DNA from: Marsupella aquatica
Taxonomy: Eukaryota; Plantae; Marchantiophyta
NCBI GenBank assembly: GCA_973895155.1
Contig: OZ316892.1
Location: 30,200,932-30,264,931 of the forward strand
Length of the DNA: 64,000 bases
Direction: 5' to 3'
Below, one piece after another: positions 32,101-55,082 of this stretch. The notes under the pieces are model-generated. The model was not told the DNA's origin. It saw only the letters and a list, made by a program, of their open reading frames with translations, and ran no database searches. The position numbers were made by a program, and so were the translations under genes. Position 1 is the stretch's first letter; each line of letters opens with the position of its first letter.

Positions 32101-32945
32101 GGCAAAACGATATTGACCAAACCAACAATTATTTACGAAGACAATAAAGCATGCGTCGACCAAATTGTTGCAGGCTACATGAAGACAGATCGGACCAAAC
32201 ATATTGATCCAAAATTCTTTTTTACGCACGAACAGAGTGGAAACCAGATCCAGGTGAAGTGGATCCGTTCACAAGACAATTGCGCCGATCTTTTTACGAA
32301 GCCCTTACTTGCGGGACCCCATCGACAGCACGTTACCGCCATTGGAATGTGTCGACTCTCTACCCTACTTTCCCCCACTGCCGATGCACCCCACCAAGCA
32401 GATGCTTGAAAAACGAAACGAGGACTTCGGAATTTGGGTTTCGACCTTTCCCCCCAACACCTCCCTGTTTACCAAATACCCGACCTAAACTATACACATA
32501 TACCTCCGACTTTACACCATTACTTCGATTCAATTAACCATTCGGGCATAAGACATTATACTTTTAGACATAGTGAACTACTCTTACTCTAAAGTTACCC
32601 TAAATTTTAACATACCTTAGAATTTAATAGGATAATTCATCATATAGAACATACATTTTATGGACCAAAATTCTAATGATGGTAGTACTCTTCCTTGAGA
32701 AGAAAGCAACAAGTTTTAATGAGGCTACATCAAAAGTGGATTCCATTTTACACTAGGGTTAAAAGTGTGGTTACTTGACACCCCGTCCAATTAACCAAGG
32801 GGAAGTGTCATAAACCATAGTTTACTTTAACCCTAGACTAGAGTAGGTTAACCTTAACCCAATATGTTAACCTCTTAGGACTATATAAGTCCTTGATATA
32901 ATGGAAGTGTGTGGAAGATTACAATCATCTACTTTGTTTACAACA
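29174..32945 (+). mobile_element. Bianca-lineage Ty1/Copia, 3' half (integrase, RT, RNase H, PPT, LTR)
   Basis: LWHYRLGHPG, ADVCGP, RVDGAGEF, RARLVAKGYTQIPG, YVDDV, KHIDPKFF; ORFs 29281-30429 and 30463-32409 share a frame across one TAG; PPT AAGGGGAAG. Confidence 0.93.
32806..32945 (+). repeat. 3' LTR of the Bianca element
   Basis: Identical, inverted copy of 23473-23612; followed by GCAAA (reverse complement of TTTGC). Confidence 0.93.
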
Positions 32946-33259: not shown

Positions 33260-33827
33260 TGTCATGAGGTTTCCATCCTAAAGGAAGAATCCTCATGTTT
33301 TGTGAAGGAAGTTGAAACCTATTTTGCTTCTAACTTGGGCAAGTTGACTTGACTTGAGCTAACTTGACCAAGGTGAAGGAGGTTGTAGAGTTATGAGGGT
33401 CAAGGTAGGGATGAGGTCAAGCCTACCCACCCTTGTTACTATTGTGGGGTATGTTTTTCATTTGTGACCAGCGATTAAGTTATCATTTGGCGGATTGGCG
33501 GAATGGAGGTTGCTTGCTCAACAAGCAAGGTATTTAGGGTTTTGGCAACATGGTGACCAGGTTCATTGAATACATGGAGGAGGTGACCAGGTTCAAGGCA
33601 TGTAAGAGGGTTTGGTCCAAGTGCATCAGTTTTGTGAGATTTGGACCAGATTCAGATTTTTGTGTTAAATGGACCAGATTCAATGTATCTACTTCAACGG
33701 TGGATCTTGGTTTTGGTTAATGGATGGTTTGGATTGAAGGTGGAGATGTGAGTTAGGGCTTGGTGGAGGTTGTGGCTTTTTCAAAAAGATCAGCCTATTC
33801 ATTAAAAGTGTATTATTATTTGATTTA

Positions 33828-34152
33828 TGTACATTTGGGCAATGAAAAGTGTACTTTGGGGCTTGGAAAAGTGTACATTTGACCAATGAAAAGTGTACAT
33901 TTGGGGATAAAAAAGTGTACAATTGGTCTAAAGAGTGTATATTTGGGCAATGAAAAGTGTACATTTGAGCATCAAAATATGTACATTTGGCTTAAAAAAT
34001 GTACATTTTAGTACATTTGGCCTAGAAAGTGTACATTTGAGTGAAAAAAGGATACATTTGGCTTAAAAAGTGTACATTTCAATGCATTTAGTCTAGAAAG
34101 TGTAGCTTTGAGTGCAACAAAGAGTACATTTGGCCTAAAAAGTGTACATTTT
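33828..34152 (+). repeat. Left subterminal array, ~22-bp period, core AAAGTGTACATTT
   Basis: About 14-15 imperfect copies just inside the left TIR. Confidence 0.85.
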
Positions 34153-34372: not shown

Positions 34373-36900
34373 CTAAGTGTACTTGTCCATCCTTTGGAGA
34401 TAACTTTGGACAGTTTGTAGAACATTTCGAGGAATCTTCAAACCTCTGCCAACCATGTTTTCTTCCTTCATTCCAGATTTAAAACCATACATTGCAGAAT
34501 TTGCATACTGCCAATGTTGAGTGTTCTCACCAAATCCTGGATCTCGTTCCCATGTCTTGGTGGACATGAAACAATTGAGATACCTAGCACTCTCACTCAC
34601 ATCAAGTTTAGAGTGTTTAGGCCTCCACCATTCCACGGGGAACATTGGAGCATATTGTTGAGTCAAAGGAGGGTCTCTTGAAGATGCAATTGGGACTTCA
34701 TGCTTAGGGTCCACCTGACCCAAAGCTCTCACCAACCAGAAATGACCTCCACCATTTTTCTTCTCCCAATCATCCTCGGGTCGAAGAAACACAAAGTTTC
34801 CTTCACAAATATCTTGGAGGGGAATCCACCGTCCTTGTTCTCTCTCAGCTCGAGATCCAACAAATGGTGCTGCTTGATCTTCCATCTCTTCCAAGACTTC
34901 ATTTTGAAGAGCTGTCATCTCTGCATTCTCCTCATCTTCACTTAGAGGACCACTCTGTTCGCATGCCGATTGGTTGACCTTGTAACCAGTGTTGTGGTTA
35001 GTCTTAGGCCAAAATCCATTTTTCAATGGAAATTGATTATTTCCCTCCCCTTCCATTGCAAGCCCATTTGACAACAGCTCCACAATTCTTTCCCAATATT
35101 TAACAAGAGGAAATCTTTCCTTATTTTCTGAACTGTCCCACAACCGACATCATATCCATCAATTGTCAAGGTCACATCATCACCTCTTGAAAACCTTCCA
35201 GTCATTCTCGGATTTAGTAACCTGCACAATTTTCAGAAAAACCATCACAAATCCGAATGACAAGAATTTGAAGAGACTCACAGTTATCCATACGGTCATT
35301 TGATTGCCATTCCGAGAATCCAAACATTGGCTCAACTATCACGCTTGGATTGGGGTGGTCCAAATCAAAACCATGAAGATTGTATTCTGAAGGTCAAATT
35401 TAAGCATCTTGCTTGAATTGGGATCGTCCGAATCCAAACCAACCTCTATCCAACACACCTTCTTGGATTTGGATGGTCCGAATCCAAACCCAGATGGGAT
35501 CCCAAAGGTCCCAATTCAACAAACGCGCTTGGATTGGGATGGTCCGAATCCAAACCCAGATTTTATTTCAAAGGTCCCAATTTGAGCACCGGGCTTGGAT
35601 TCGGATGGTCCGAATCCAAAACCAGATTGTATTTCAAAGGTCCGAATCCAACCCACCATCTTGGATTTGGATGGTCCAAATCCAAACACAGATTCTATCC
35701 CGAAGGTCCCAATTCAACAAACCGGCTTGGATTGGGATGGTGCGCGAATCCAAACCCAGATTGTATTTCAAGGTCCCAATTTAAGCATCGGACTTGGATT
35801 CGGATGGTTCAAATCCAAAACCAGACTGTATTTCAAACGCCCAAATTCAACCATCTCGCTTGGATTGGGATGGTCCGAATCCAAACTGAGATTGGATCCC
35901 AAAGGTCACAATTTAAGCATTGCACGCTTGGATTCGGACCATCCGAATCCAAAACCAGACTGTATTTAAAACGCCCAAATTCAACCATCTCGCTTGGATT
36001 GGGATGGTCCGAATCCAAACCGAGATTGGATCCCAAAGGCCACAATTTAAGCATTGCACGCTTGGATTCGGATGGTCCGAATCCAACACACCCTCTTGGA
36101 TTCGGACCATCCAAATCAAAAACCAGACTGTATTTACCATCTCGCTTGGATTGGGATGGTCCGAATCCAAACCGAGATTGGATCCCAAAGGTCACAATTT
36201 AAGCATTGCACGGTTGGATTCGGATGGTCCGAATCCAACACACCCTCTTGGATTCGGACCATCTGAATCCAAACCAAGATTGGAATCTGATCAGATGGTC
36301 CCAATCCTAGAAATGGATTGGATTTGGATCATCCAAATCCAAACAACAATCTAGGATTAGGACCATTATAATCCACACATCAAGTCTGGATTCAAATGGT
36401 CTAACTCCACAATGAAGATTATGTTGAGATGGATATATTGAGATTGAGATCTCTTCCTAATCAAATTTAGACATTCCGGGTTTTTCGGAACATTGGGTAA
36501 TTCATGAAATAATAATTGGGAAGTCACTAGAATGCAGAACAAAGTGAAAGGGTTCGTCTCTCTTCCCTAAGAACTCAAAATAAGCAAAGCAACTAAGACC
36601 ATAACTCACCTCAGCAGTCTTGTTTTTCCAGTATGTCTCCAAGGTTGGCTCTGCTACCTCTAAATTGATGAATAAGTTCATATCAATCTGACTAAGAAAG
36701 CTATCAAAGCCACTTCAAGTCTAAACTCCATCAGAGAGAAGAGCTGAGGAGGAGTTGCGTAGACCTGGATGCCCAAGTGAAGATATGAAACTAAAACAAC
36801 AATGATGTCCGCAGAGTACCTCTTATACTCGTGGGTTGGTATGTTCGGCCTTGAATGTGCGATCCGATAAGGTTGAGGCAACACCGAGTATCGCGGTTAG
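34373..36900 (-). pseudogene. Spliced gene remnant, possibly the C-terminal part of a transposase
   Basis: ORF 34373-35143 (KYWE...GFWP...PFVG...FVFLRP...FWLVRA...VEWW); phase-0 intron 36609 to 35222 (GAG|GTGAGT ... TGCAG|GTT) joins YWKNKTAE|VTKSENDWK; several TGA stops; no DDE core visible. Confidence 0.45.
35345..36345. repeat. Array of ~18 copies of a 25-bp palindrome with related ~10-43-bp spacers; intronic
   Basis: TTGGATT(C/G/T)GGA-tgg/cca-TCCGAATCCAA recurring mostly every 65-68 bp. Confidence 0.9.
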
Positions 36901-37325
36901 AACAATCATCCAATCCTTTTTCAATCCATTGTGTCAGACAATACAGCTAGCGTCCCACCCAAACTGATAGGACCAGATCCCTTCTTGGTCTCTATCCGTA
37001 CAGAGATGATCCGTACAGAGATGATCCGTGCAGCGATCATCCGTACGCAAACAAGCCTTTCAGGAGGGGGTAAAGGGAGGACGAGGTCTTCCACAGACCT
37101 CATTGTTGTTTTCTCTCTGTCGCTCCTCACTCTCGCTCCTCCCTCTCGCTCCTCACTCTCGCTCTAGCTCCTCATTCTCGTTCCTCGCTCTCGCTCTTGG
37201 CTGGCTGCCGCCGCTATCCCTTGCCCTTGCCCTAATTGCCTTCTTGCCCTAATCTGCTGCAACGCCCTAGATCTTGCCCATCTTGACGTGTCCTCAGTAT
37301 ATCCTGCCACGTGTCACTCCTAAAA

Positions 37326-40300
37326 ATGGAAGTTGCCAAGAAAACCGTCATCGTCCTGCTCGCCGAAGAATCTGATAACTTGGATCTCTCCTCTGTCGGT
37401 GATCTTGTGGCCCTAGCGCTTAGGGATTCCCAAGAATTTCAATCTCAAGTCCAAAGTAAGTTCCCGGAGGTTTATTCATGCATCTTAAGTTGTTGGATTC
37501 GGATGGTCCGAATCCAAGAGCGTTGTTTGGATTCGGACCATCCGAATCCAAGTGGGTTGTTTGGATTCGGATGGTCTGAATCTAAGAGGGTTGTTTAAAT
37601 TTGGACCATCCAAATCCAAGAGGGTTGTTTGGATTCGGACCATCCGAATCCAAGTGGGTTGTTTGGATTTGGATGGTCCGAATCCAAGAGCGTTGTTTGG
37701 ATTCGGACCATCCGAATCCAAGTGGGTTGTTTGGATTCGGATGGTCTGAATCTAAGAGGGTTGTTTAAATTCGGACCATCCAAATCCAAGAGGGTTGTTT
37801 GGATTCGGACCATCCGAATCCAAGTGGGTTGTTTGGATTTGGATGGTCCGAATCCAAGAGCGTTGTTTGGATTCGGACCATCTAAATCCAAGTGGGTTGT
37901 TTGGATTCGGATGGTCTGAATCTAAGAGGGTTGTTTAAATTTGGACCATCCAAATCCAAGAGGGTTGTTTGGATTCGGACCATCCGAATCCAAGTGGGTT
38001 GTTTGGATTTGGATGGTCCGAATCCAAGTGGCTTGATTGGATTCGGATGGTCTGAATCCAAGAGGGTTGTTTGGATTCGGACCATCCGAATCCAAGTGGG
38101 TTGTTTGGATTCGGATGGTCCGAATCCAAGTGGCTTGATTGGATTCGGATGGTCTGAATCCAAGAGGGTTGTTTGGATTCGGACCATCCAAATCCAAGTG
38201 GGTTGTTTGGATTCGGATGGTCCGAATCCAAGTGGCTTGATTGGATTCAGATGGTCCGAATCTAAGAGGGTTGTTTGGATTCGGACCATCCGAATCCAAA
38301 CAACCCACTTGGATTCGGATGGTCCGAATCCAAGAGCCCTCAATCTCACTTTGACAGTGATTTCTTAAAACAAATTTCATGGATTTGAAGTCTAATATGA
38401 ATTTTCACTCTCCAATGCAGAGAGTGATCTGGTGAATACAACTCTCGCCATTTCAGAGGCAGACTGCGACGATGGGCTCATTTTGGAGGACCGCGATCCA
38501 GGATTTCGGTGGGGACTTGAGTTCTCGCGAGTTAACTTCCGCCTGAATTCATTTAACATTCACGATCCAGTGTTATGTGTCAAGATCAGGACAGGCAACA
38601 ACCAAACATTGGTCATCGGACCCGTGGTCTCTGTGGGAATGATAGGAAGAGGAATGAATTCTATCATTGTAGAGGTGTCGAACACGATGAGGTGGGCAAA
38701 GTTGCAGCTCCCCACAAAGGCTTTCTCGGCCGAGTTCAATGTGGAATGGTATGCAAGTGGGGAATTAAGTGTGTTGTCGATGGGATTCTTTCCAAAATCC
38801 TACACAAAGGAGAAGATTATTGGAGGACTGAAGGGAATGCTTCCTTTGGACATTTTTTATGGGTTTCTTTATTTGAAACTCAACATTGTAAACAACCCAT
38901 CAAAGTTCTCTCTTCCATCCACATGGACTCTTAACAATTTGCTTGAGAAAGCAGGTCTGGTGTCACCAGACTCAAATGTTTGGATTGCCAAGGCACTAGC
39001 CTTTGCACACACGCTTGACCTGGAAAAAGCAAATCTATGGGTAGAGTCTTTGGTGAAGTTGAGGAAAAGTACACAACCACAGAAAATAATTGAGTCTACG
39101 CCAGCCAAAGGAACTCCAGCAACTACGACGGAGACAGCACAAACTACTGCAGCAACAACCATGGATAGAGCGGTAGGGAAGCGAAAGCAGAGGGAGAAGA
39201 AGCTTCTGGTTGAGAAACCTACTTCAGTTGAGAAGAAGATCACGGCTCCAGCCGAGAAGAAGAAGCTTCCAGCCGAGAAGAAGTCGAGGGAGAAGAAGAA
39301 ACAAAAAACCGACACCGGAGTTGTGAATTCAACTCCTATAGATTTTTCATTACATGCTGAAGATGAGGGTGATAGGCCACATGCTCCAGAGGAGAAAGAC
39401 GTCTTAGAAGGGAATGAAGTTCTTCAACAAATGGAGCAGTACTATACTTTTGGGATAAACAAAAATTTTCTGATCCCAGTTGAAAGTATTTTTGCCGCAC
39501 CAGCGAGACTATGCTATCGGATGATGAATTTTGATCATGTGCAAGACATTGCTGATTCCATGATCAAAACACCTGGGCATGAGCCACATGTCGCTGATTT
39601 GATTCCTTTTAATGTTGAGCGAAGAAAGGTACTCCACTTTGAGAATACGGAGTCGGACCGGAAGGATTTTTTGGCCGGAGTGAAAAAGGGCGAGGTCCAA
39701 TTTCTAGCCGTTAGTGGTCAGCACTCTGCGAGAGCTGCGAGATGGATTCGTGATAGGGCAACGAAGGATGCCAAGCTCACCCAGTTGGCCAAGAAGTTAG
39801 AATTCAGGAAATCCAGAATATTGTCTGATCGCACACCGTCTTCAATTCTTGTTGAGCACTCCATGAGATCGAACGCCATCAATAGCACGATGGTGTTTCA
39901 GTCTTGCTTTAAAGATACAGTTGTCCATGCGAGGCGGCAGTTTGTTGAATGTGGAAATCCAGACAAACCAAAACATGGCGACAACAAAACAAATGCTCAA
40001 GACAACCAAAAATTTCAGGTAAGAAATGTGATTACTTTGTATGCATTTCTCTACCATAGAGAGTAATTCTATTTTGGATTCGGATGGTCTCAGTCCGACA
40101 CGATTTGTCAAAGAGTATTGGAACTTTTGGAATGTTTAGTACGAGTTTTGTTTTTGATTGAGACCATCCGAATCCAAAACTATTATCGCACATTAGAATC
40201 CTTTTTTTCCAACCCTTGCGTTGGGGATAACTGACTAGCTTTCCTTTTGGATTGTAGGATTGGTTGGCTCTGGCAAGAATGACTATGGGCAGGAAGGACT

Positions 40301-42633
40301 TGCGAAATGTATACTGGCTACTTTTTGCGGACAACGATCTTTTTGAGTTGTGGCGGTTAGTCTGTGAGATGTGGTTGCATGGGAAACTTCCTGATGGAGC
40401 TGGGATGGAAGGAAATAACAAGTCCGAAAAAGCAATTACCGTTGCCATGTTTCGTCCCTTTGATGGTGAGTTGATCTCACAGAAAGACATCACAAAAATC
40501 CTGACACAAGTGAAGTCAGGAAAGGCATTGCTGAAGAAAGATGCCACAAATAAATCTGACATACCCTCAATAGAGGAGCTTGCGAAGGATGTGAAAAAAG
40601 TGAGGAAGCTCAAGTCTCTCATTGAGGAGTACTACTTCGGCAAGGATCCAAGGAATTTCCCTTCGGATACCGATTGGAAGAAAGTTGTAGAGGTTCTGCC
40701 ATTGTTGAGTGTTGACGCAGAATTCAGTAGATGCAGAAGAGCGGCTGGTGAAGTTTTTTTGTCAAATCTGTTGAAGCCAAATCATACCAGGGAGAGTGCA
40801 ATCTTGCCAATAGCTCTGGTGATGCGCCTTGATGACATTTATTGCTAGAAGTTTGGCGGAGGGACACATTCTCGGAGCCAACCGTGGGTCACGTTCTTTA
40901 GTGACAATCTAATGAAAACAGTTGATCCACCAGCAATAGAAGAATCATCTCCAACGTGCTCACTTGCCATTGTTGACTTCAGTCGAGATCACCAGAAGCT
41001 GTGGACGGAAGCAGAAGTTTTGGTCTTTCTGCAATACATTGTGGAGCTACCACGAAATCTTACAATCGTTGTAGCCATAACTGTTCATCCGGGGCCTCTT
41101 GCAATGAATGTCCTAAGCTCACTTTGAAAATTGGGACAAGAGAAATCTCTCACCATTCACATTGAGTATGGGAGTTATTCTCGAGAGGATCAACCGCACC
41201 CGCTTGATTCGTGTTGGGGAGGCGGAATTGAAGAAGTTATATTCGCAGGAATTTCTCGAGATGAAAATGTGAATTGGAATGATGTTTTCAAACCCAATCA
41301 CCCAAAGCCAAAATTCTTTTTTGGTTCAAAAGATACTGATTTTGAGGTCACCAAGATTGACACTGGGAAGGCAAAGGTTGACACAGACGACGTGTCAAAA
41401 CCCAAAGATCTAAAAATGATGCTGACCCCAGAAGAGGCGACCAAGGTTTTGCACATGGCCCCTCGATTTGAGATAGTTGGTGCTCATGGTGGTTGGGTGA
41501 ATCCACATGCCAAACCCATGCGGATGATACAGAGGATTATTGAATCCTTGTCAGAAGCTGGAGACTTGATTCTTGATTTTTTCTCGGGTGGTCAAGTGAT
41601 GAAGACAGCATTCTTGGTGCAACGCGAATGCTTTGTTTATTGTGACTCTCAAGATGAGAGACACTTTGTGGAAGCGTATGCTTCATTCCTTTGCGAGAGG
41701 GTCCCCTCAATCAAGGAAAATTGGGATCCTCGTGGTGGGAGTTCTAGGCATTGGAAACCCACTATTGCGGATGTTTCTGCCGAACATGAATTAGCTGATA
41801 ATTCCGAAGAAGTGGGCACTAAGTCAGTCAAAGATGATGGGGCATCAGAGGTGGCGTATGCAAAGAATTTGGATGACCGTGTAGGTCAAAGTGAAAGCAT
41901 AGAACCCTACGATGTTGATGATAACGTTGGTCTTGCACCACGCCCTTCATCACGTGCAGATGACGTCCCTTTGGAACCCTATGAAGTTGAGGTTGATGAC
42001 AACTTGGACAAGGATGGTCTCAATCCAAATGTGGTGCAACGAGAAACGGACGGAATTGGTGATCCGATTGACATTGATACATTTGAAAATCGTTCGTCAA
42101 CCAATTTGGTCACGGACGGTGGAGACAGACAGGTCAATTCGAATGAAGCTGACACCCAAAATTTGATTCCCGGGATGGCTGTCGAAGTACGTGAGATTCC
42201 CATGACCCCAGAAGCCCGTGCATCAGCGACTGTTGACAACCAGGCAGGTGCTTCAATTTGTCCTGACACACTCTTTTCAGCTTCTGATGACAAATTGGTT
42301 TTTGTTCGTTCACACTCGGGAAGTCCAGTTGTCCTTCCTCTCTCAAAGAAAAAAGGGAATAGAGTTGGATCAACCGGATGGAGGTCACTTGAACGTGATG
42401 CACGATGTTATGTGTGGAAAAGTGGGCCAAATAGAGGCCAAGAAGTTTCATTGGATGCTGCTCCATCGATTCTTAACAGGAAGGAGTATAAGAGAGGAGA
42501 ATTGGGATTGATAACTCCTGTTTGGACGTCACCTTATTGGGTAGAACAAAGTACTTCAGATGTCAATTTTGAAATCCAAGAGGAGCTGGGTGTTGACATT
42601 ATTGATGAATACGGATCTCTTTTTTCAGACTGA
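37326..42633 (+). pseudogene. Three-exon gene (~1367 codons): ParB/Sulfiredoxin-like domain + beta-class N4/N6 DNA methyltransferase-like domain + acidic tail; two in-frame stops
   Basis: Exons 37326-37455, 38421-40018 and 40258-42633 with GT-AG introns of matching phase (A|GTAAGT..CAG|AG; CAG|GTAAGA..CTGAC..TAG|GAT). ParB-like IPVESI...YRMMNFDHVQDIADSM...FLAVSGQHSARA. MTase-like SLAIVDFS...NPHAKPMRMIQRIIESLSEAGDLILDFFSGGQVMKTAFLVQR. Stops TAG 40846 and TGA 41125. Confidence 0.7.
37493..38333. repeat. Tandem array of 25 palindromes at exact 34-bp period, in intron 1 of the ParB-MTase gene
   Basis: TTGGATTCGGA(TGG/CCA)TCCGAATCCAA + 9-bp linker; 841 bp = 24x34+25. Confidence 0.95.
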
Positions 42634-42694: not shown

Positions 42695-43906
42695 AATGCG
42701 GTCAGCAATTAGAGCCTCGATATCCACCTACGCTCTTTGGGGCTTCTAAAAATGGTATGTAGGTTTTCTTTGTTGTTAGTCATTGTCTTGTATTTTTGGA
42801 CTGAGACAATCTCAGTCCAAAGTTCAAATTTGGTTTTCTTTCTAAGAGTTGTATTTGTTGCACTTGCAGAATCGAGACCTTGTCCCATCAAGCGGAAGTT
42901 GCTGATTTTGGATCTTAACAAAATACTTTGGGATTCACTTGAATTCCAAAGCAAGGGCAAATCCAGAAACATTGTGACCCCAAATGGAGTGCATTGGGAT
43001 AGATCAAATGGAACTAGTCGCATGTATACACAGAGGCCAGGGTTCCATGAGTTTCTAAAGTTGGTTTTTGACCGGTTTGACGTTGCAATTTGGACATGTG
43101 CTGGGATGCCGTGGACAGTGAAAATGTTGAACATGATGTTCACTGTTGAGGAGCGGTTGAAACTGAAGTTTGTATTCACACAGGTGGAAGCCTTTGACAC
43201 AGGCATTCAAAGGCGTGACATTACAAATGGAAAGGCAAATGTGCTATTGAAGGATTTTCGGGTGGTATGGAGTGCATTTGGAAATCTATATGATGAAACC
43301 AACACACTCCTTGTGGATGACTCCCCCTTGAAGGCATTTGCCAACCTAGACATGACCGGACTATTTCCAGTGCCCTACACGCATGCCAATCGTGGAGACA
43401 ATTTTCTTCTAACAATTCTTTGGCCATGTCTTGAGAAGCTGTCACATGCAAGTGACATTCGTTGTTATCTTCTCCTAAACTCTCCAAAGTGGTCTCTATT
43501 GCACATTAAGAGAGACAAGGCAAAAAATGAGATTACTTATGATCAACTTAGTAAGAGATGTGCAGCAAAACTTTGGAAGTCACAGTATAGGCATAGTGTG
43601 CTGGACCTCAATAGCAATGAGATTCCTTGGGCTGTGAAGCACCGTATATGTAGCTTACGTCCTGAGGTGGAACTTGACGATGCACTTGTCACCTCACTTG
43701 CTAGATCATTTGTAGGACGGGAATATTCAGGTCTGTATAGAGAAAATCCCAGACACTTTTTGCGGGAGATTATAGCAGTTAGGAACAACACCACCAAATT
43801 TCATCTCCCTGAAGATAAAGGGAGTTGCAACCATGACATTAGGGTAGATAGTAAAGGAGACAAGGGCACGTGCTCAAATAAATATTGTAAGGAGCACTTT
43901 GTTTAG
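42695..43906 (+). CDS. FCP1/NIF-homology (HAD superfamily) phosphatase-like protein
   Basis: KLLILDLNKIL, QRPGFHEFL...FDVAIWT, LLKD, TNTLLVDDSPLKA; likely exons 42695-42754 and 42870-43906 with a phase-1 intron; Cys-rich C-terminus. Confidence 0.8.
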
Positions 43907-44164: not shown

Positions 44165-44246
44165 TAAAGTGTACATTTAGGTATCAAAAAGTGTACATTT
44201 GGGCTTCTTAAAGTGTACATTTGGGGACATAAAAGTGTACATTTCA
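44165..44246 (+). repeat. Right subterminal AAAGTGTACATTT array
   Basis: Four copies at ~22-bp period, same orientation as the left array. Confidence 0.85.
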
Positions 44247-45756
44247 GGACTGATTTGTGAACAAAAGAAAATACACTTTTAATGAATAGGCTGATAAAGG
44301 TCGAAGCCCATTTGGTTTACAAGTTACTAAGGAGGGGTTTTTTGGCTCATTTTTGGCCGTTTGATCTAATTGGTGTGAGATTGAGGGCTGTGATTCAACG
44401 AGGATTAAAACCATAAGTGGAGGGGCTTGTGGGTGCCCTGGGCCTTCCCACGTGGGTACTAAAGGAGGAAGTTCGAGTGGCCAAGGGTTTGGAAGTTAGA
44501 TGCTGCTGAAGTGCTGTCGTTTTGCCATTTTGGAGTGTTAAGTCCCATTTTTAGTTGTAGGAGCGAACCTCTTGAGGGGAGCTCGAGCATGAGTGAAGGG
44601 GGAGCCCTCCTCCTTGGCCATGGCCTTAGGATTTTGAGGGTAGGAGATGTAGAGGCAATTTTGTGAAGAGATAGATGGAGTAGAAGCTTTGAATGTGAAG
44701 AGATTGAGTTTTGTGACGGTTTTTCTAGGGATTTGGAGAGAGGTTTCGAATGTAGGAGAGGCTGACTTGAAGCCTTAGGAAGGAGGTAGGATGTGAGTAG
44801 GAAGTATAAGGAGCTTGCATGAGAGATTGCCCACAAGAAGGCATACTCGAATGTAGGTTTGTTGCTTCAAGTTTTGAGGAGAATGGACTTGTAGGAGATT
44901 TTCGAAAGCTTAGAGGAGATGAGACCTAATCTTGTTGAAGCTTGGGAGTCTTGCATTAGAGATGGCTCACTAAGAAGGCCTACTCTCTTGTAAACTCCTT
45001 GACTTGAAGCTTCGAAAGTAGATTTGGTTGGTAGAAGGAAGTATGAGAGAAGGAGACTAGGGTTTTGAAGCTTGGATAGGCTATGGAGGGATTTTGAATG
45101 CTTGGTTGATGATTAGACTTGGTGATGATTCATTTTTGCTAGGAGGGTCTTACTTGTGACCCATGTTTTTACTTGGAGGCCATGATGCTACATGTGCCTT
45201 CTTGCTATGCATTTAGAGGAGAGGTATCCTCGTTTTTGAGATGTGTGTTGATGCCTTGCTTTGGCTATGAGTGATGGAATGGTTAGAATGAATGTCTTCA
45301 TGCCATTTTTGAATGTTGTTGTGAGCTTGAAGGTGTTTTTGAAAGTAGATGGGTTGGATGAAGGTACTTTCGAAAGTAGTTATTATGCATGAGGGAAGTT
45401 GCAAGAGTAAAGAGTGAAGGCATTTTTGATTGATGGAATGGGTTGTTTGTGGATTGTACTTGGTGGTTCTACTAGAGGAAGGGACTAAGGTCAATTCCAT
45501 GTTTGTTAAGGAGTTTGTTGACCAACCCTAGGTCACTTTTCAAAAGTAGTTTTCCATGTTTCAACAGTTGGATGTTTGAATGGTGCATAGAGATGCCTTG
45601 CATACCTTTGGATGTCCCACTTGTCTTAGCCACAACCAAGAGTGACCCTTAACTTGACCACATTGATGTAAGCTTGAACTTGTGTACCTTAGAGGGTTGC
45701 AAGGGATTGTGTGCAATCAAGTGTTGGAAAAGGAATGGTGACCAATTGAATGTTGG

Positions 45757-48700
45757 TGTCAAACACTTGCCAAGGAGCTTAAGCGGCTTTTCTCCCCAAA
45801 AGACTACCTAATACCTGCTCCATGTCATACCAGGGTCACAAAGGATTGACAAAACTTCTGAAGTGTGCTTACAATGTCCAATCACTCCATACATAAGTAG
45901 TTTCAACTCTCCACTTCTAGAGAGGTAGTCCCCTTGACTACTTTTGTACTCACCCCTTCCCCTCTCCTCTACTCCAAGGATCAGCAAGGGGGATCTCCGC
46001 TCCAAGCTGTCACCTTAGAGTAGATTCTCACACAAACACCCAAGAACCCAAAGTACTTTCCTCTTCAAGCTTAAGTCTCCTCAAGACCCTCAAAGTAGTG
46101 TTACCCCTCAACCTTGCCCCCCTGGCCTTGGTTTGGGTCCACACATCCCCTTTGAGCCCTAGAGAAGGCTCCTCTATCTAAGGACTCTTCCTCTTGTTCT
46201 TACTTCTTGTTAACACCACACACCAAGCAAAGTACTTTCCACCCTCAAGCTATAATCCTCTCTAAGTCTCAAAGTAATGCTATACCTTAACCTTGCCTCC
46301 TTGGCCTTGGTTTTGTACTAGCACATCCCCTTCAAGCTTAGACCAAGATTATACCATAGCATGGACTCTTCTCTTGCTCTCATATACTTCAAATGCACTC
46401 ACACTTAATGGTCACAATGAAGATTGGTAAGTCTCCTTTTATTGCATCACCTTTACAACAAAAGTTCACTACACATTCTCCACACTAAGCATGGACCACC
46501 TCTCCTTTCTCAAGCTTAGCCCTACCTTGGCAAGGTAGAGATTTCACTTAAGAGATGAGACTCCCGGTCCCTAACAAATGAAAACTTCCTCCTTATATAC
46601 TATCTCCTTCCACATCACACCAAGCTTGACCTGGGGTCCAACTATACCTCCCCCAAGTCCTCCTAACACACAAAGTCCAACTCTATAGTTCATAGCCCAC
46701 CCTACTACTTGCTATTTTGCCTCCTTCCAAGCCCTGGAATATGCCACACATGAGTGGTATGCTTTGACTTCCAAACCTACTCCCACTTATGGTCCTCCTC
46801 ACCAGCTTACCAACCCACTTGAAAGCTCGCAAAAAGAGTGAGTGAGTCTCAAGTTGTGCCTAGTCAAAGTTGGCCTTATTTTACTTGTAACCCCTTTACT
46901 ACCCTAAGTAAACTACCCCCTATATTTACTTTTCTTAACTTGATGGCCTTACACCTTTGGCCAAAGGTAAGTACCCTTCTCTAGAGCCTAACTCAAGTGG
47001 TATGGGTGCAAGAAAGGTCAGCCCCTAAATCTGGTATTCATTCCCCTATGCCGACTTTGGTTTGCAAGTTGTCGGGACTCCCTCGTGGCCTCGGTTAAAA
47101 ATATATTTGAGTGATTACTTTTCTGGGGTTCCACCTTCACCAGGGGTTGCCTTATCTTCCCCTAACTCAGCACAAAAAAATTTGGGCCCCAACGGATACC
47201 TCTAGCCAAAGTTATGCCCATTCTCCCAAGGCCTGTTTTTGGTGTAAAGCGGGTGTAAGCGGCGGCCCGATTACACTTACCTTACATGCCCCTTATGGGG
47301 ATTCCACGTGTCATGAGGGGAGAGCACTCTCATTATACTCATGTTTCTTATGAAGAATTTGTAAGGACAGCAATGTTTGCAGCCATTTCTCTCTCGTGAA
47401 TTCAATCTAAAACCACAGCATTCTCTATTGATTCTTTCTTGTGCAGCAGTCCAGCTGATCAGCCGCCAGCCCCTCAATTTCACAGCCACCATAGCTCACA
47501 GCCAGCCTAGTCAATTTCGCAGCTAGCCCACCTCTTCAATTTTGCCGCTAGCAACACAGTCAATTTCGCAGCTAGCAGCACAGTCACATCAGCGCATTTA
47601 CAGCACAACAACAGCAGATTTGAAGCACAGCAGCAGCAACCATAGCTTGATTCCTTCTCAGTCAAGCAGGTCTCTCTTCTCAATTTCGTAGCTGCCCACC
47701 TTTGCAATTTCGCAGCTAGCAGCAGCATCATTCAATTCAGCAGCATCAAGGCAGCAGCCAGCCAATTCTCATGAGCATCTCGTGCCTGATTAGTAGGAGC
47801 ACCTCTAATCTAGTGTGCAGCTGTCATAGCAGCAAGCAGCCTTCCCAATTCAAAGCCAGCAGCGATCCTAATTTGCAGCCATAGCTCTTTTCCTTCTCAG
47901 CAGCCATAGCTTCTTCAATCAGCAACAGCCCTTGCTTCTTCAATCAGCAGCAGCCATTTCAATTCAGCCGCCCTTCCTTCAATTCAGCCGCCCTTGTGCT
48001 CAATTGATTCCTCAAGTAATCATGCAGCACCTTTGGACAGCCTCCCGGTGCTTGACGTCCTCACCAGCCTCGTGCTTGCTCCTCCTTGCCTCGTGCTCGC
48101 TCCTCCTTGCCTCGTGCTCGCCGCGTGATCGTCGCCCACGCGGTTTACACTTAGAAAAAAATACATTTTTTTTTTGGAAAAACAGCATTTTGGGGCGATT
48201 TTGGACCCCCCTCCAAAACTCACACATAAGTCCAAAAGGACTTCTGAGTAGCTCCACTGATTCTATGGACATAGGACTATGTCCGGGTTTACTAAGATAT
48301 AAACAAAACCCTATAACAACTTTTCTAAAATTAGGCAAAGAGGGTCAAGTCTTTATGTCTTCCAAAATTCTTCTCAACTTTGAGATGCTCCCAAAAAGTA
48401 ACCAAGTGTGACAAAGTTGTCCCACAAGTTTCTAGGGATAGAGGGGACCATACTTAACCCACTTCCAAACTTGGAACCCCTACATTTACCCATCAGCTAT
48501 TTTTCCCGGGACCCGCTATTTGGTAACTTTGATTTTTGCCAAAATACTTATAACTCCTAGGTTAAGACCCCACTTGACTTCATACTTTTTCAGGGTTCCC
48601 TAGGGACCTCCCAGCACCCATGGGGGAAATATCAGCCAAAAATAAGATGTCCGGTGTCGGGTCATTTTTCGGTCCCGACTTAGTCGCCTATTATAACTAA

Positions 48701-48919
48701 GGACGGACTAGTTTCCTGCCCCTCCTATAGTAACTTGCTTACCCCTAGATAACTTTGCATAACTAAATTCCCTCTTACCTCTACTAAGCTTCCCTTCTTA
48801 CTTAAGTGCCCTAAACCTAGCTACTCTGATAGCACTAAAACTTTTTCCCTAACTATTTCCTCTTCTAAACGAAAGAATGTCATGTTTCTCTACACTAGCT
48901 GACACTGAGCCATCCCACA
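45757..48919 (-). repeat. 3' LTR (3163 bp)
   Basis: TGTCAAAC...CATCCCACA, duplicated at 55083-58246; adjacent PPT AAGTAGGGGGCTA (48920-48934, minus strand). Confidence 0.95.
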
Positions 48920-48959
48920 TAGCCCCCTACTTAAGTGTGCAGCGTCCCCGCAAACACAC

Positions 48960-51900
48960 TTATTCCTGATTAAAGTACCTTTTCAACCTATCATGATGCA
49001 CTCTAGTAGGGAACACCTCTCCTTCAAGAGTAGCAAGCTGAATTGACCCATTAGCATAAACCTGGTGAACAACATAAGGACCCAACCACCGAGTATGCAA
49101 CTTGCCTGGAAAATGAGCATACCTACTGTCATAGAGTAATACCAGTTGTCCAGCAAGTAAAGAAGTTGGCTTCTTCAACTTCTTGTCATGATGTTGCTTC
49201 ACTTGAGCTTGCTTCTTCTTCACTTGCTTGCTTGCCTCTTCCCGGATTTCCTCCAACTCCTCCAGCTGGTAAGCTCTCTCCATTAAACTCTGGTCAGCCT
49301 CCATTCTCTCCTCCACACTTACCCTCAAAGTAGGCACTTCAAACTCAACAGGTACAAGGGAGTGTTGTCCAAATACTAGGTAGAAAGGACTATGGCCGGT
49401 TGTGGTCTTGAAAGCAAGGTTGTAGGAGTACACAGCTGAGTATAATTTGTCATCCCAATCAGTCTTGTGTGCCGCCACGGTTTTGTTCAAGATCTTGCCA
49501 ATGATGCCATTAGCTCTCTCCGTTAATCCATTGGCCTTGGGGTGATAGGGGGTGGTCTTCCTATGCTTAATCAAGTAATGGTTAGTGAGCTCCTCCACAA
49601 CTTCATTCAAGAAGTGAGTCCCCCTATCACTAACCAGCTCTAGAGGTGGCCCAAATCTGGTAAAAATCTGTTGATACATGAACCTTGCTACTGTGAGAGC
49701 ATTATCCTTGCTGGTTGGTCTTGCCTCTACCCACTTAGTAGCATAATCAGTTGCAAGAAGGATGTATCGATTCCTTCTAGACCTGGTCACAGGAGTGATG
49801 GGACCTATGAAATCTATACCCCACTTCTCAAAAGGTGCAAGAGGTAAGATGGTGGTAAGAGGGTGATGCCTTGAGTGAGCTGGCTTACCTGTCCTTTGGC
49901 AAGGGTCACATCCCCTCACAAAAAGACTTACATCCTTATGAAGTGTTGGCCACCAATACCCTGCATCAAGAATTTTCCTTGCTGTTGTTGCACTTGCATA
50001 ATGGCCACCAGCCTCCTCCTCATGCATAGCTCTCATCACAATGGAGATTTCCTTCTTCTCCAAACACCTCCTTAGTCTCCCATCAACTCCTTCCTTGTGA
50101 AGGACACCCTTCACCAATAAGTAAGGTCTGATTTTTCTCAGGAAAACAGCAGCCTCCTCTTGGTTCAAATCTCTTGGTAGCCGGGTTGTGAGAAGAAATT
50201 GGATGATATCCAAATACCATGTATCTCCTCCACTTCCCACATGAAAGAGGTCTTCATCTGGAAACTGATCATCCACCTCCTTCAAGTCCTCTTCTCCTTC
50301 AATCCTTGAGAAGAAGTCTGCATTCCCATGCTTCTTACCAGGCCTGACCCTCACCTCATAATCAAACTCTTGGAGCAACAAGATCCACCTTGCCACTCTA
50401 CCAGTTACATCAGGTTTATTCACCATATACTTGAGAGCATTGTGATCAGTATGAAAGACCACCTTATAGCCCAACAAGTAGTGCCTAAACTTCTTACAAG
50501 AGTAGATGATTCCTAGAGCTTCTCTATCGGTTGGTGAGTAATTCTTTTCAGCTGGTGCCAATAGTCTACTTGCAAAGTAGATAGGGTGATCCCTATTCTG
50601 GTCATCAAGTTGACTAAGCACCACACCAATACAAAAGCCAGACACATCCACATACACATGAAATTCTCTACTCCAATCTGGTGCTATCAAGATAGGGGCT
50701 TCAACCAACCTGTTCTTCAACTCCTGAAAACTTGCTAGCCTCTCAACTGAGGGTTCAACCTCAGCCCCCTTCTTAAGCATGCTGGTTAGGGGTAAAGCTA
50801 CTTTAGCAAAGTCCTTAATGAACCTTCTATAGTAGTTTAAACATCCCAAGAATCCCCTCAACTCTGTCACTGAAGTTGGAAACTTGACAGCCATCCAAAC
50901 AGCAACCTTCTCTTGGTCCACTTCTATGCCCTTCTTGGATACCTTGTGGCCAAGTAGTATCCCTTCTTCCACACCAAAGAAGCACTTCCCTGGGTGAAGC
51001 TTCAAACCAACTTCCCTACATCTTTGGAAGGTCATCCTCAAATGTTCAACATGGTCCTTCCCCCTTCCAAAAACAGCAAAGTCATCTATGAATACTTCCA
51101 AGAACTTTCTCAAGTAGTCATGAAAGATATTCATCATCAACCTTTGGAACATACCAGGGGCATTACAAAGACCAAAAGGCATCCTCCGAAAGGCATAAAT
51201 CCCCCACTCAGTAGTAAAGGCTGTCTTCAACTGGTCCTCCTTCCTTATCCAAATCTGGTTGTAACCTGAGTACCCATCTAGGAAGCTATACACTTCCCAA
51301 CCAGCTACTAAATCAAGTACCATATCAGTAAATGGAATGGGATAGTGGTCCTTCTTAGTGGCCTCATTGAGTTTCCTAAAGTCTTGGCAAACTCGGATCT
51401 TAGGCTTACCATCCAAGCCTGGTTTCTTTGGTACTATGACAATTGGAGAAACCCACTCACTATTCAACACAGGATAGATGAAACCTGCTTCCAGCAATTT
51501 GTCTATCTCTTCCTTCACCATCAAGGAGTACTTGGGATTCATCCGATATTGCCTTTGTCTCACAGGTGAAGCTCCTAGCATCAAGTCGATTCTATGCTCA
51601 CCAAGTTCAGGGTTTACACCAGTAAGATCCAAGTGACTCCAAGCAAACACATCCACATATTCACCTAGCAAATCTTGGATAGTTTTCTCTTCACCTGATC
51701 CCAGGGCATTTCCCAAGTTGAAGGTCTTGTCTTGCTGGACAGAGATGGTTCTGTACTGCTCAGCTCGAATCACCTCCATCTTGTTCCTCATTGTGGAGTC
51801 AAAAGTGCCCTCAAGTTGTGCCAACCTCATGCCTCCATAGACGGGTGCATTTTCAGCACTTAACTCCTCCTTCTCCTTGCTTGAATGCTGGTCTTCCTGA

Positions 51901-54900
51901 GTCTCATCCTCCTCTGAGTTTGCAGCCTTCAATTGGTCCTCTAGCTCCTTTATCTTGAGCTTTAACAAGGCTAAGTGCTTAGCCTTTAACCTCTGGTCAT
52001 TACTCCTTGTCTTGATCTCAACTTGGGCAGCACCCTTGCTGGTCTGATCAACCTCCTGAGCCATTGTGATAGTGTCTTCTTGGTTGCTCTCCTTGGCTGA
52101 GGTCTCAGCCTGCTTCACCTCCTCGAGACTGGTCACTTCACTGAGACTGGGCAGAGGTGAATGGCTGGTAAGAGCCTCCTGCTCTTGCTCCTCTCCAAAC
52201 ACTTCTTCTTCAGTCCATTGGCTCACCATGTTCAACATGTATACCTCATCCTCATCAGATTCAGATTTGGTACTCAACTCATCGGAAAGTTCAGAATCAT
52301 ATTCATCCAACTCATCAGTAGTCTCTCCTTGATGCTTGTCATGACCCCATGAAACTGAAGTGGCTGGTTTGCCAAACCTAAACTCCTTCTTGCCCCAATC
52401 AGACACTACTTTGGCTCCATATAGCCAAGGCCTCCCAATCAAGATTGGGTAAGTAGATGGCCTTGCTGGTCTCATCACCAAGTAATTCAACAAGAACTCC
52501 TGCCCCCCAATGAGAGTAGGTACTTGAGTAAGTGTCCCCACCGGTAGCACTCTTGCTCCATTTGCTAGCCTCATTGTCCTTGCTGTTGGCTGAAGTTTCT
52601 TGAAACCTAGTTGTTGGGCAGTAGCCTCAATCATGATATTCACACCTGAGCCTCCATCAACTGGTACATACGAGAGTACACACCCATTTACTTGAACATC
52701 AATCTCAGGTGCTCCAAGGTCTTCACAAACCATCATCACATCAGCTGGGGTACCAACCTTTGGAAGCTTCCTTCTTCTCCTTCCTACCAACATCTCCTTC
52801 AGTTGCCTCCTATACAAAGGGTTGTCTTTGATCAGCTGCCCCACTGTAGCAGTAACCAAACAATCTTTCACATCCTTCTTGATGTCATAAGAGGGTACCT
52901 TGCTGGTCTCTTTCTTCTCTTCCACCTCAGCTTTTTCCTTCAAAGCTTTAGCAACCTTCAGGTCTTTGTTGATGGCCTCTTGATGCTCCTTAGCCTCCAT
53001 CTCCTCTAGTTGCCTCTTGACTTCCTCATTCACCTTGGGATAGAAGAGCTTCGGATGGTCTCTCTTGTAGTCACTATCTTCAGCTGGTGGGACTTGAACT
53101 TCTGCTCCAACTTCAACTTCGATTGGTGACTCCGTTGAGTGCTCCTTTCTCTCCTTCCTCTTCTTCCTCTCTTCCACTCTTTCCTTCTTTCTTGTGGACC
53201 TGGTAGACACCTTGTAACACACAGCTTCCTCCTCAGGTGTCTCCATTCCTGGTAGATCTGGCTGGTTCTCCCCACCAGCAACTTGTGTCACTCCATCTTT
53301 GGCCTCCTCTTGCCACTCCATACTCAAGAAGTTCACTGTGGCTTCACCGGGAGCCTTGGCAACCGCTGGTGGTGGTGCTTCTATCCTTCCTATCATCATC
53401 TTGGCAGCAGATCCAATAGGACAGTTGGCTGTGGTATGACCCTCCCTTTTGCACACAGCACAAAGAGGATAGGGAGCTCCTTGTCCCTGCCTCCTTGGTT
53501 CGGGGCAACTGTTGGAATAGTGCCCTGGTTTTTGACAGTTCCAGCAGATCACCACGGTAGTTCTTGCCACTCCCCCAGGTCCTTGAGGTCCCATTTGATC
53601 CACCATCCTTGGTTGAAGACCAGGCATCAGTTGAGGTGCCATGGGTGGAGCTGGTCTTCCTTGCAAAGTTCTTGGGCCTCCTGAAATCTGGTACACCATC
53701 TCCGGGGCTTCTTCATAGAAGTAGTCCACCACTTCACTTGCTTGATAAACATCGTTGGACTCTTCATTGACATACTGAACTTGATTCCTCCAACCTTGAC
53801 ACTCTTGAGGTGTATGGCCAAAACTCTTGCACTTGACACACCATACATGGGCTCTATTCACCGGCACTTTTCTCCTATCAGGTTGCACACCAGCAAAGTG
53901 AACTGATAGGGCCTTGAGTTGGTTGGTGATCTCACTCATCTTGTTATCCATCACCTTCTTCTCCTTGGTTGCTGGTGTAGAACCTTCCACCAAGTTGAAG
54001 GTTGCAGATTTGTGGTGCTTACCACCTGGCTTCTTCTTGCTGGCTCTCCTCTTCTGGTCGCTTTTTCTCTTTGCCTTCTTCTTCTTCTTCTTCTTCTTCT
54101 TCTCGGAGTCCTCCTCAGAATCAGATTCTGAATCAGAACTGGAACTACTCTCCTCAGATTCCGACTCAGAAGTATCCTCAACTGAACTACTTGATTCACT
54201 TGAGCTAGAAGAAGAATCACTATAAGCAAATCGCTTCTTCTTTCTCCTACTCTTGGAACTAGAGATCTCAGCACTCCTATAAGACTGAGCCGCCTCAATG
54301 GCCTCATCCAACGTATTAGGGTGAGATTGCCTTACTGAGACACCCATCTTCTTGGGTAGGCTTGCCACAAACCAAGCCAACAACATGGAGTCTACTGGTC
54401 TGGGGTCAAGCTTGGTAGCTAACCTTTGAAACCTTTGCAGAAACCTCCTTACTGACTCCTTGGATCCCATTCTGATCTCTCCCATCTTGATCAGAGCTTC
54501 CGATTCTTCTCCCACCTTCCTAAACTCCTGCAAGAATGCTAGCTTGAAGGCATCCCAATCATTCTTGATGGCATTTGATAGGCTATTGAACCAAGGTCTT
54601 GCTTCTCCTCTCAAGACCCCCGCCAAAGTGGTCAACTTAATATCAAACTCTCCATTGGCTTGGGCTGTCCCAATGAAGTCCTCCAACCAAGCATCAGGAT
54701 CCTCCTTGGGCTTGCCATGGAATGTCTTGTACTGAAATCTTGCTCTTTGAGTCACCACCATGGCTGCTTCTTGATCTTCACTTGTGTTGGTAGTGGAAGA
54801 AGATGTATCACTCCACCCTACACCAGGTTCCGCTTCAGCTTGCAAATGAATGTCCACCCAATCTGGTTGCTCCAACTGGTCACCAAAGTTGAAACTAAGA

Positions 54901-54938
54901 GAGGCTTCTTTTAGTGCTTGACTCCTTGTAGTGGGCAT
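48960..54938 (-). CDS. Gag-Pol polyprotein (gag, three CCHC knuckles, protease, RT, RNase H, integrase)
   Basis: Single open frame, first ATG at 54938; CX2CX4HX4C x3, VDGGS, FLDGYSGYNQI, FIDDF, DVSGF, GHY...CDPC, SDRGTHF, GPY. Confidence 0.95.
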   Translation of the reverse strand: MPTTRSQALKEASLSFNFGDQLEQPDWVDIHLQAEAEPGVGWSDTSSSTTNTSEDQEAAMVVTQRARFQYKTFHGKPKEDPDAWLEDFIGTAQANGEFDIKLTTLAGVLRGEARPWFNSLSNAIKNDWDAFKLAFLQEFRKVGEESEALIKMGEIRMGSKESVRRFLQRFQRLATKLDPRPVDSMLLAWFVASLPKKMGVSVRQSHPNTLDEAIEAAQSYRSAEISSSKSRRKKKRFAYSDSSSSSSESSSSVEDTSESESEESSSSSDSESDSEEDSEKKKKKKKKKAKRKSDQKRRASKKKPGGKHHKSATFNLVEGSTPATKEKKVMDNKMSEITNQLKALSVHFAGVQPDRRKVPVNRAHVWCVKCKSFGHTPQECQGWRNQVQYVNEESNDVYQASEVVDYFYEEAPEMVYQISGGPRTLQGRPAPPMAPQLMPGLQPRMVDQMGPQGPGGVARTTVVICWNCQKPGHYSNSCPEPRRQGQGAPYPLCAVCKREGHTTANCPIGSAAKMMIGRIEAPPPAVAKAPGEATVNFLSMEWQEEAKDGVTQVAGGENQPDLPGMETPEEEAVCYKVSTRSTRKKERVEERKKRKERKEHSTESPIEVEVGAEVQVPPAEDSDYKRDHPKLFYPKVNEEVKRQLEEMEAKEHQEAINKDLKVAKALKEKAEVEEKKETSKVPSYDIKKDVKDCLVTATVGQLIKDNPLYRRQLKEMLVGRRRRKLPKVGTPADVMMVCEDLGAPEIDVQVNGCVLSYVPVDGGSGVNIMIEATAQQLGFKKLQPTARTMRLANGARVLPVGTLTQVPTLIGGQEFLLNYLVMRPARPSTYPILIGRPWLYGAKVVSDWGKKEFRFGKPATSVSWGHDKHQGETTDELDEYDSELSDELSTKSESDEDEVYMLNMVSQWTEEEVFGEEQEQEALTSHSPLPSLSEVTSLEEVKQAETSAKESNQEDTITMAQEVDQTSKGAAQVEIKTRSNDQRLKAKHLALLKLKIKELEDQLKAANSEEDETQEDQHSSKEKEELSAENAPVYGGMRLAQLEGTFDSTMRNKMEVIRAEQYRTISVQQDKTFNLGNALGSGEEKTIQDLLGEYVDVFAWSHLDLTGVNPELGEHRIDLMLGASPVRQRQYRMNPKYSLMVKEEIDKLLEAGFIYPVLNSEWVSPIVIVPKKPGLDGKPKIRVCQDFRKLNEATKKDHYPIPFTDMVLDLVAGWEVYSFLDGYSGYNQIWIRKEDQLKTAFTTEWGIYAFRRMPFGLCNAPGMFQRLMMNIFHDYLRKFLEVFIDDFAVFGRGKDHVEHLRMTFQRCREVGLKLHPGKCFFGVEEGILLGHKVSKKGIEVDQEKVAVWMAVKFPTSVTELRGFLGCLNYYRRFIKDFAKVALPLTSMLKKGAEVEPSVERLASFQELKNRLVEAPILIAPDWSREFHVYVDVSGFCIGVVLSQLDDQNRDHPIYFASRLLAPAEKNYSPTDREALGIIYSCKKFRHYLLGYKVVFHTDHNALKYMVNKPDVTGRVARWILLLQEFDYEVRVRPGKKHGNADFFSRIEGEEDLKEVDDQFPDEDLFHVGSGGDTWYLDIIQFLLTTRLPRDLNQEEAAVFLRKIRPYLLVKGVLHKEGVDGRLRRCLEKKEISIVMRAMHEEEAGGHYASATTARKILDAGYWWPTLHKDVSLFVRGCDPCQRTGKPAHSRHHPLTTILPLAPFEKWGIDFIGPITPVTRSRRNRYILLATDYATKWVEARPTSKDNALTVARFMYQQIFTRFGPPLELVSDRGTHFLNEVVEELTNHYLIKHRKTTPYHPKANGLTERANGIIGKILNKTVAAHKTDWDDKLYSAVYSYNLAFKTTTGHSPFYLVFGQHSLVPVEFEVPTLRVSVEERMEADQSLMERAYQLEELEEIREEASKQVKKKQAQVKQHHDKKLKKPTSLLAGQLVLLYDSRYAHFPGKLHTRWLGPYVVHQVYANGSIQLATLEGEVFPTRVHHDRLKRYFNQE

Positions 54939-55044
54939 GCCACTCACAATCACCTTCTTATCTCCCTTCTTCTCTTGAACAGCAAACCTGCAAACACACC
55001 TCCAAGTCTTGTGGCTCCACTCCAACAAAAACTGTAAAGAGTTG

Positions 55045-55062: not shown

Positions 55063-55082
55063 AAAACAAGGGTGGGACTCTA

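Follow-up and report, generated by a model that had tools for sequence, protein, structure and literature searches.

A decayed ParB-methyltransferase-like gene in a liverwort transposon belongs to a family that keeps two predicted folds without their catalytic motifs

We analysed a 64,000-nt stretch of the genome of the liverwort Marsupella aquatica (contig OZ316892.1, forward-strand positions 30,200,932 to 30,264,931; hereafter the window, numbered from its first letter). Within it, a 10,507-bp element bounded by terminal inverted repeats (TIRs) carries a gene for a fused protein with a ParB/Srx-like part and a part resembling beta-class amino-methyltransferases. The gene consists of three exons and two GT-AG introns, and its joined coding sequence (CDS) is 4104 nt long, or 1367 codons plus a stop. 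The original prediction, of a frame of about 1367 codons running through two phase-matched GT-AG introns and two stops, proved correct to the base, and the motifs it had named were located at GQHS 39716, LAIVDFSR 40963, HAKP 41506, GDLILDFFSGG 41560 and AFLVQR 41608. The two in-frame stops, TAG at 40846 (residue 773) and TGA at 41125 (residue 866), preclude making the protein, and the window copy is a pseudogene. Its parts are as follows (all on the plus strand).

37326-37455: exon 1, 130 nt (43 codons plus 1 nt), donor GTAAGT at 37456
37456-38420: intron 1, phase 1, acceptor AG at 38419-20, filled by 25 palindrome units
38421-40018: exon 2, with a PH-like N-terminal domain (weak), a basic disordered linker and the ParB/Srx-fold domain
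38453-38908: PH-like N-terminal domain, weak resemblance of the predicted model to PH/PTB folds (Z 4-5)
39416-39955: predicted ParB/Srx-fold domain, residues 376-555, SGQHS box with GQHS at 39716 replacing GxxR
40019-40257: intron 2, phase 0, donor GT at 40019, site conserved in relatives, two degenerate palindrome units
40258-42633: exon 3, with the helical domain, the methyltransferase fold, an acidic linker and the C-terminal domain
40258-40857: helical domain, residues 577-776, containing the TAG stop
40867-41727: predicted beta-class amino-methyltransferase fold, residues 780-1066, pLDDT (predicted local distance difference test) 88, CcrM Z 19.0, HHalign 98%
40975: aspartate of motif IV DFSR (within LAIVDFSR), at the (D/N/S)PP(Y/F) position
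41575: motif I DFFSGG, one residue shorter than DxFxGSG
41641: motif II column, no acid
42247-42633: C-terminal domain, residues 1240-1367, behind the acidic linker and conserved in alignments

The real frame holds two stops, against a mean of 83 and a minimum of 60 in 500 shuffles of the CDS. Intron 2 is supported by relatives of the gene: most homologues of exon 2 (7 of 8 clearly) terminate by reading through the same donor, a 1.8-kb metagenome locus (L001) has a GT-AG intron at the identical phase-0 site, and the homologues P0033, P0003 and P0169 align across the exon 2-exon 3 junction without a shift. The acceptor of intron 1 fits the N-termini of five homologues, as judged from protein sequence. 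The 130-nt first exon has the coordinates claimed for it and a strong donor, but its homology is weak, 139 of 2000 shuffles matching the Calypogeia first segment as well, which makes it the weakest part of the model.

The original prediction had made its methyltransferase-like assignment depend on a Rossmann fold in the C-terminal part, and one is predicted there. The structure model of exon 3, built from 59 sequences (mean pLDDT 88), has the circularly permuted Rossmann fold of beta-class enzymes, with motif IV ahead of motif I. Its best match is CcrM (root-mean-square deviation, rmsd, 3.4 over 218 aligned residues), followed by BceJIV, HpyAVI, MboIIA, RsrI, PvuII and the rotifer N4CMT (Z 15.6-17.1), and identity to beta-class enzymes in the structural alignments is 10-17%. 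Pfam N6_N4_Mtase has a hit in the C-terminal half of the protein (27.8 bits, cut-off 26.7, E 2.9e-6), and HHalign against six phage methylases (probability 98%) pairs LAIVD-FSR with DCIITD-PPY.

The catalytic motifs of the class are missing from this fold. The (D/N/S)PP(Y/F) signature of motif IV is absent, with proline at the first or second position after the aspartate in 0 of 61 aligned proteins and an aromatic residue at the third in only one of the 61; motif I does not have the form FxGxG and is one residue short relative to all six phage enzymes; and the motif II column, the place of the acid that holds the ribose of S-adenosylmethionine, is acidic in 0 of 63. What the family keeps is the motif IV aspartate (57/61), a lysine (68/70), the motif I glycine (64/68), an arginine (58/63) and a downstream glutamate (56/63); all these counts take in fragments and near relatives. 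The catalytic-motif residues that the family lacks have counterparts in the rotifer N4CMT, where they are described as holding the cofactor at its ribose and its carboxylate and as positioning the base (PMC10406627). The degenerate motif IV noticed earlier in the window copy is family-wide, and decay of this copy alone was ruled out as its cause, since intact relatives share the motif. Across the aligned sequences, motif degeneracy is a conserved family trait that reaches motifs I and II as well as the arginine of the ParB box discussed below, and its spread through the family, with the folds retained, indicates that the loss of both signatures predates the family's diversification. The conserved aspartate, lysine, arginine and downstream glutamate may leave room for another ligand.

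A ParB/Srx fold had been expected at about 39470-39900, and one is predicted at 39416-39955. The model of exon 2 (17 sequences, pLDDT 72) matches PadC with a Z of 7.9 (rmsd 3.1, 98 aligned residues), KorB with 7.7 and pNOB8 ParB with 7.4, and the top seven of 48,161 chains are PadC, KorB, pNOB8 ParB, SerK, SbnI, Srx and Atu1540 (Z 5.3-7.9). The top Foldseek rows are Noc, Srx and ParB at E 0.016-0.6, none reaching E 0.001. The Z-scores are middling, yet the top rows of both structure searches are all chains of the ParB superfamily. Of the two profile matches proposed at the outset, that to N6_N4_Mtase was found and that to ParB was not: no ParB model of Pfam or NCBIfam matches exon 2 or any of the 17 aligned members, and a sequence search of the PDB with the ParB alignment gave nothing significant. 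It is the predicted fold that points to ParB identity. The neighbours of this part in the Atlas are fungal DUF3723 clusters (score 0.95), DUF3723 being cargo of fungal Starship elements. ParB CTPases carry a GxxRxxA motif (PMC11229316). This motif of the ParABS-type CTPases is not found in the family, whose box reads GxHS in 17 of 17 aligned proteins (GQHSARA in the window copy), with serine for the arginine of GxxR and no GxHR.

For the remaining regions, the helical domain gave no fold match, matches spanning only model residues 206-486, and the C-terminal domain has no convincing match in the PDB, in Pfam or by structure. With regard to the helix-turn-helix (HTH) expected of a ParB, palindrome arrays are present, while the helical domain, which was not folded alone, gave no match.

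A profile search of 1.84 billion representatives returned 236 proteins at E ≤ 0.001, of which 150 were listed. The organism was looked up for 30 of these 150, and all those named are liverworts (17 from Riccia sorocarpa and 3 from Calypogeia fissa), with no alga among them. The Riccia sorocarpa proteins are spread over at least seven different contigs. P0169 is a single uninterrupted protein of 1009 residues with both domains, collinear with the query over residues 367-1054 at 33% identity, and six Riccia gene models carry the ParB box together with methylase sequence, two of them only the first part of the latter. By these sequences the fusion is real beyond the window copy. A scan for long relatives (932-2660 residues) of the ParB part had found none in 400 candidates, weak evidence that P0169 supersedes. 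Peptide-pattern scans, which are sensitive to close relatives only, found none in viral contigs and GTDB genomes, and tblastn against phages gave weak matches to the motif I half only (best shown E 5e-3). A quick, unfinished tree of 39 family rows over 180 residues and six phage rows resolves several deep clades of the family, all separate from the phage enzymes, and puts the window protein closest to P0002 and the Calypogeia proteins; the proposed phylogeny does not name a donor. A prokaryote-type fusion with spliceosomal introns, as had been suggested, agrees with the two predicted folds and with an intron 2 common to relatives.

The introns of the element are occupied by a 25-bp palindrome with 11-bp arms and a 3-bp spacer. 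There are 44 units in the element, all intronic and none outside it within the window: 25 in intron 1 (37493-38333, at 34-bp spacing), 17 in the intron of a minus-strand gene (35345-36342) and two in intron 2; exon 3 contains a single looser match. The spacer alternates between TGG and CCA, so that the orientation of the unit flips along the array. Half of the mismatches among units (29 of 58, the units not being independent) are transitions at CG sites, at 4 of the 22 positions. Each unit holds two GANTC sites, whose density is 21-40 per kb in the arrays and about 4 per kb beyond the element. GANTC is the target of CcrM, the top fold match, but the overlap was set aside as coincidental, since the Z-scores of several other beta-class enzymes come within 2 units of that of CcrM.

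The 10,507-bp element that houses the gene has perfect 26-bp TIRs and a 4-bp target duplication, as in TIR transposons, described from this single copy. Compared with the 26 bp of the TIRs, 100 shuffles gave no inverted match longer than 14 bp; both flanks match in composition, and the empty site has no other match within the window. The remaining features of the element are listed here.

33785-33788, unstranded: left target-site duplication AAAG, repeated at 44296-44299; a 2-bp AT duplication with ends starting from CAG also fits
33789-33814, plus strand: left TIR, 26 bp, perfect, beginning ATCAG
33828-34152, unstranded: left subterminal repeats of about 22 bp with a TGTACA core; the window has 21 TGTACA sites, 15 of them within the left and right subterminal arrays
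34373-35221, minus strand: terminal exon of a divergent gene in decay, probably encoding the C-terminus of a transposase, four internal TGA stops
35222-36609, minus strand: intron of the divergent gene, phase 0, donor GAG/GTGAGT, acceptor GCAG/, 17 palindrome units
36610-36948, minus strand: upstream exon remnant of the divergent gene, four stops, 5' limit uncertain
42713-43906, plus strand: FCP1/NIF phosphatase-like open reading frame, the second cargo gene, Pfam NIF E 4e-15
44166-44244, unstranded: right subterminal repeats of about 22 bp
44270-44295, minus strand: right TIR, 26 bp
44296-44299, unstranded: right target-site duplication AAAG, matching the left copy

The divergent minus-strand gene, with its phase-matched intron and eight stops, stands head-to-head with the ParB-methylase-like gene. 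In the Atlas its only lead is DUF7869 (score 0.87, 12% of members), a domain that we presume to be linked to Sola, a link for which no paper was found. The element is likely Sola-like. The 4-bp AAAG duplication suits that superfamily, but the ends can equally be read with a 2-bp AT duplication, and of the putative transposase only a decayed C-terminal remnant is seen. Members of the Sola superfamily make 4-bp target duplications (PMC10741241), and Ginger elements likewise produce duplications of 4-6 bp. With the transposase core lost and two stops in the cargo gene, the window element is non-autonomous and could move only in trans. The NIF sequence follows the methylase-like part in three Riccia gene models too. 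Phosphatases of the HAD group carry DxD, and at this position the window cargo has DLN and its Riccia relatives DVE, so that the second cargo gene may be catalytically altered as well.

The fusion design itself is already known. In Ectocarpus, the element Sola1-1_Ec32 encodes an accessory protein of 1104 residues with ParB-like and N4/N6-methyltransferase parts, opposite the transposase and with a 4-bp duplication (PMC12477816). The liverwort case resembles it in that one protein of similar size combines both domains, its gene lies on the strand opposite a (putative) transposase, and the large element around it has TIRs and a 4-bp duplication; for the Ectocarpus protein, binding to the element that encodes it has been proposed. 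If the divergent gene is a transposase, the architecture is that of the algal ParB-methylase accessory proteins. It differs in its land-plant host, in size (10.5 kb against 21.5 kb), in TIR length (26 bp against 282 bp) and in the added NIF gene. The Ectocarpus paper predicts an active methylase, whereas the catalytic motifs of the liverwort family are lost, the two being compared by architecture and not by sequence. In red algae, Plavaka elements are described in which one gene has a PF01555 domain and another, next to inverted repeats in tandem, a ParB domain (bioRxiv 10.1101/2025.02.11.637652). Their PAG2 and PAG3 share with the liverwort element transposon-borne PF01555 and ParB-like domains and inverted-repeat arrays by the ParB gene, but they are two genes (methylase plus SET; ParB plus 2OG oxygenase) on EnSpm-type elements, whereas the liverwort protein is fused, and neither a SET nor a 2OG domain was detected in it.

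Among proteins of known function, the family shares the fold and the order of motif IV before motif I with CcrM, M.RsrI, M.MboIIA, M.PvuII and the rotifer N4CMT, and differs from such beta-class enzymes in having no (D/N/S)PP(Y/F), a shortened motif I and no motif II acid. Marchantia DN4MT1, compared by motif and not by sequence, is reported to keep TSPPY, which is absent from the family. With the ParB/Srx superfamily (ParB, Noc, KorB, PadC, DpdB/DndB) the family shares the fold of the N-terminal nucleotide-binding domain, and its palindromes recall parS; unlike those proteins, it has GxHS for GxxR, no ParA partner and no identified HTH. Judged by its sequence motifs, the protein fails both as an active beta-class methylase and as a ParB CTPase, whereas its architecture is that of the algal accessory proteins, whose way of working it would share. 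The VANC proteins of VANDAL transposons are anti-silencing factors that bind tandem repeats of their own elements (PMC5735166); like them, the protein is encoded by a transposon whose non-coding parts hold tandem repeats, although homology is not expected. DIRS1 elements are described as holding inactive methylase domains (PMC4738411), likewise dead amino-methylases kept by a mobile element, but of another structural group and within a retroelement polyprotein. The literature found holds no description of the family in bryophytes or land plants, nor of a family-wide catalytic loss, although the Bostrychia supplements may list plant relatives. What is new here is the liverwort-associated plant branch and the long-conserved loss of catalytic motifs.

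We place slightly more belief than doubt in reading the window gene as a broken accessory gene of a 10.5-kb TIR transposon, whose intact product would be a catalytically dead binder of the element's own palindromes that keeps the element active against silencing. Because the catalytic motif is absent in all relatives examined, the intact protein likely binds the palindromes and does not methylate DNA. The beta-class fold would be retained as a module for DNA recognition and dimerisation, the ParB-like and adjoining helical domains would aid loading or oligomerising along the 34-bp-spaced palindromes, and the bound arrays, which flank a shared promoter region, would allow the divergent transposase and cargo to stay expressed despite host silencing, much as VANC proteins do. 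We infer all three for the intact protein: that it binds DNA, which site it targets and what the binding achieves. Several observations weigh against this proposal. The motifs were assigned by profile alignment and not by residue-level superposition, and the strong conservation of the motif IV aspartate and the downstream glutamate would be explained by an altered active site too. The CG decay of the arrays indicates that the window copy was apparently methylated by the host (5-methylcytosine, 5mC), and palindrome arrays and TIRs together are shown for the window copy only. In addition, the divergent gene, likely a C-terminal remnant of a transposase, owes this identity to a weak Atlas lead; a DDE/DDD core was not found in it, nor any Pfam or NCBIfam match.

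Three other explanations were weighed. The protein could be a structural cofactor of transposition that binds the arrays or ends and joins the termini or recruits the transposase, with no silencing role; the gene and the putative transposase stand head-to-head, a dimeric binder would be well served by palindromes, the element has two repeat systems, and Spm transposition is reported to require accessory DNA-binding proteins. We nonetheless find it unlikely: the palindromes are arrayed inside the element, on either side of the promoter region, the ends bear a different 22-bp repeat, and in red algae similar cargo is described as moving between unrelated transposase families, which speaks against a transposase-specific role. 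Slightly less probable is an enzyme with a remodelled pocket that methylates or otherwise modifies bases of the element through a non-canonical D-F/L-x-R, possibly with the downstream glutamate serving for the cofactor. The aspartate, lysine, DFFSGG, arginine and glutamate are conserved across divergent clades, as such an enzyme would have them, and two phage genes annotated as methylases have a variant motif, DIPY; but these variants retain PY, whereas in the liverwort family both prolines, the stacking aromatic residue, the ribose-binding acid and the carboxylate-binding serine or threonine are all replaced or deleted. The lowest probability goes to a passive passenger or captured host gene with unrelated minisatellites as its palindrome arrays, in keeping with a dead window copy and with no autonomous copy having been seen. 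Relatives are numerous, divergent and dispersed within single liverwort genomes, the NIF neighbour recurs, introns of both genes share the palindrome, which is absent from the window beyond the element, and the design recurs in algal transposons, all of which stand against mere carriage.

Beyond the preferred reading of a dead palindrome binder lies a broader idea that we hold with considerably more doubt than belief, namely that an old family of double pseudoenzymes in seed-free plants, with a ParB lacking its arginine and a methylase lacking PPY, constitutes a parS/ParB-like system of self-recognition, in which each element family would evolve an intronic palindrome of its own together with a fitting binder as a shield from 5mC silencing by the host, or else a remodelled pocket with an undescribed base-reading or base-modifying activity. 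The ParB-methylase cargo of eukaryotic transposons has so far been proposed to methylate its own element, and no experiment was found in the literature. That both folds are kept and both catalytic signatures lost across divergent liverwort lineages suggests that DNA binding, not methylation, is what has been conserved, and the 25-bp palindrome is a named candidate target. With this candidate and with relatives in the liverworts, a group with a genetic model, the idea of self-binding and anti-silencing is directly testable. The family is not to be taken for another writer of N4-methylcytosine (4mC) in plants beside Marchantia DN4MT1.

The rest of the window is rich in repeats; its pentatricopeptide-like array and its Copia and Gypsy elements, taken with the liverwort relatives of the cargo gene, suit a seed-free plant, probably a bryophyte. 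To the left, a 150-bp inverted repeat (23473-23622 and 32797-32945, 98% identical, with TGT...ACA ends) encloses 9.2 kb with two same-strand integrase/RVT_2 Copia-like blocks and ends 840 bp left of the transposon; Copia ends would be expected as direct repeats, and the inverted ones seen here resemble the termini of Ginger elements. To the right, a very young Ty3/Gypsy element on the minus strand (45757-58246) has 3.16-kb long terminal repeats that are 99.94% identical and an intact gag-pol frame of 2039 codons, and is strongly CG-depleted (observed/expected CpG 0.13). At 61434-62586, a perfect 109-bp inverted repeat with copies 935 bp apart lies inside a Gypsy reverse transcriptase/integrase region and is possibly a small DNA transposon or an inversion. 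An array of 303-bp (101-codon) repeats, 72-88% alike, occupies 341-2540 on the plus strand and is presumably a PLS-class pentatricopeptide repeat (PPR) gene, the plus-strand frame not having been scanned, and a short telomere-like TAAACCC run is found at 16232-16263.

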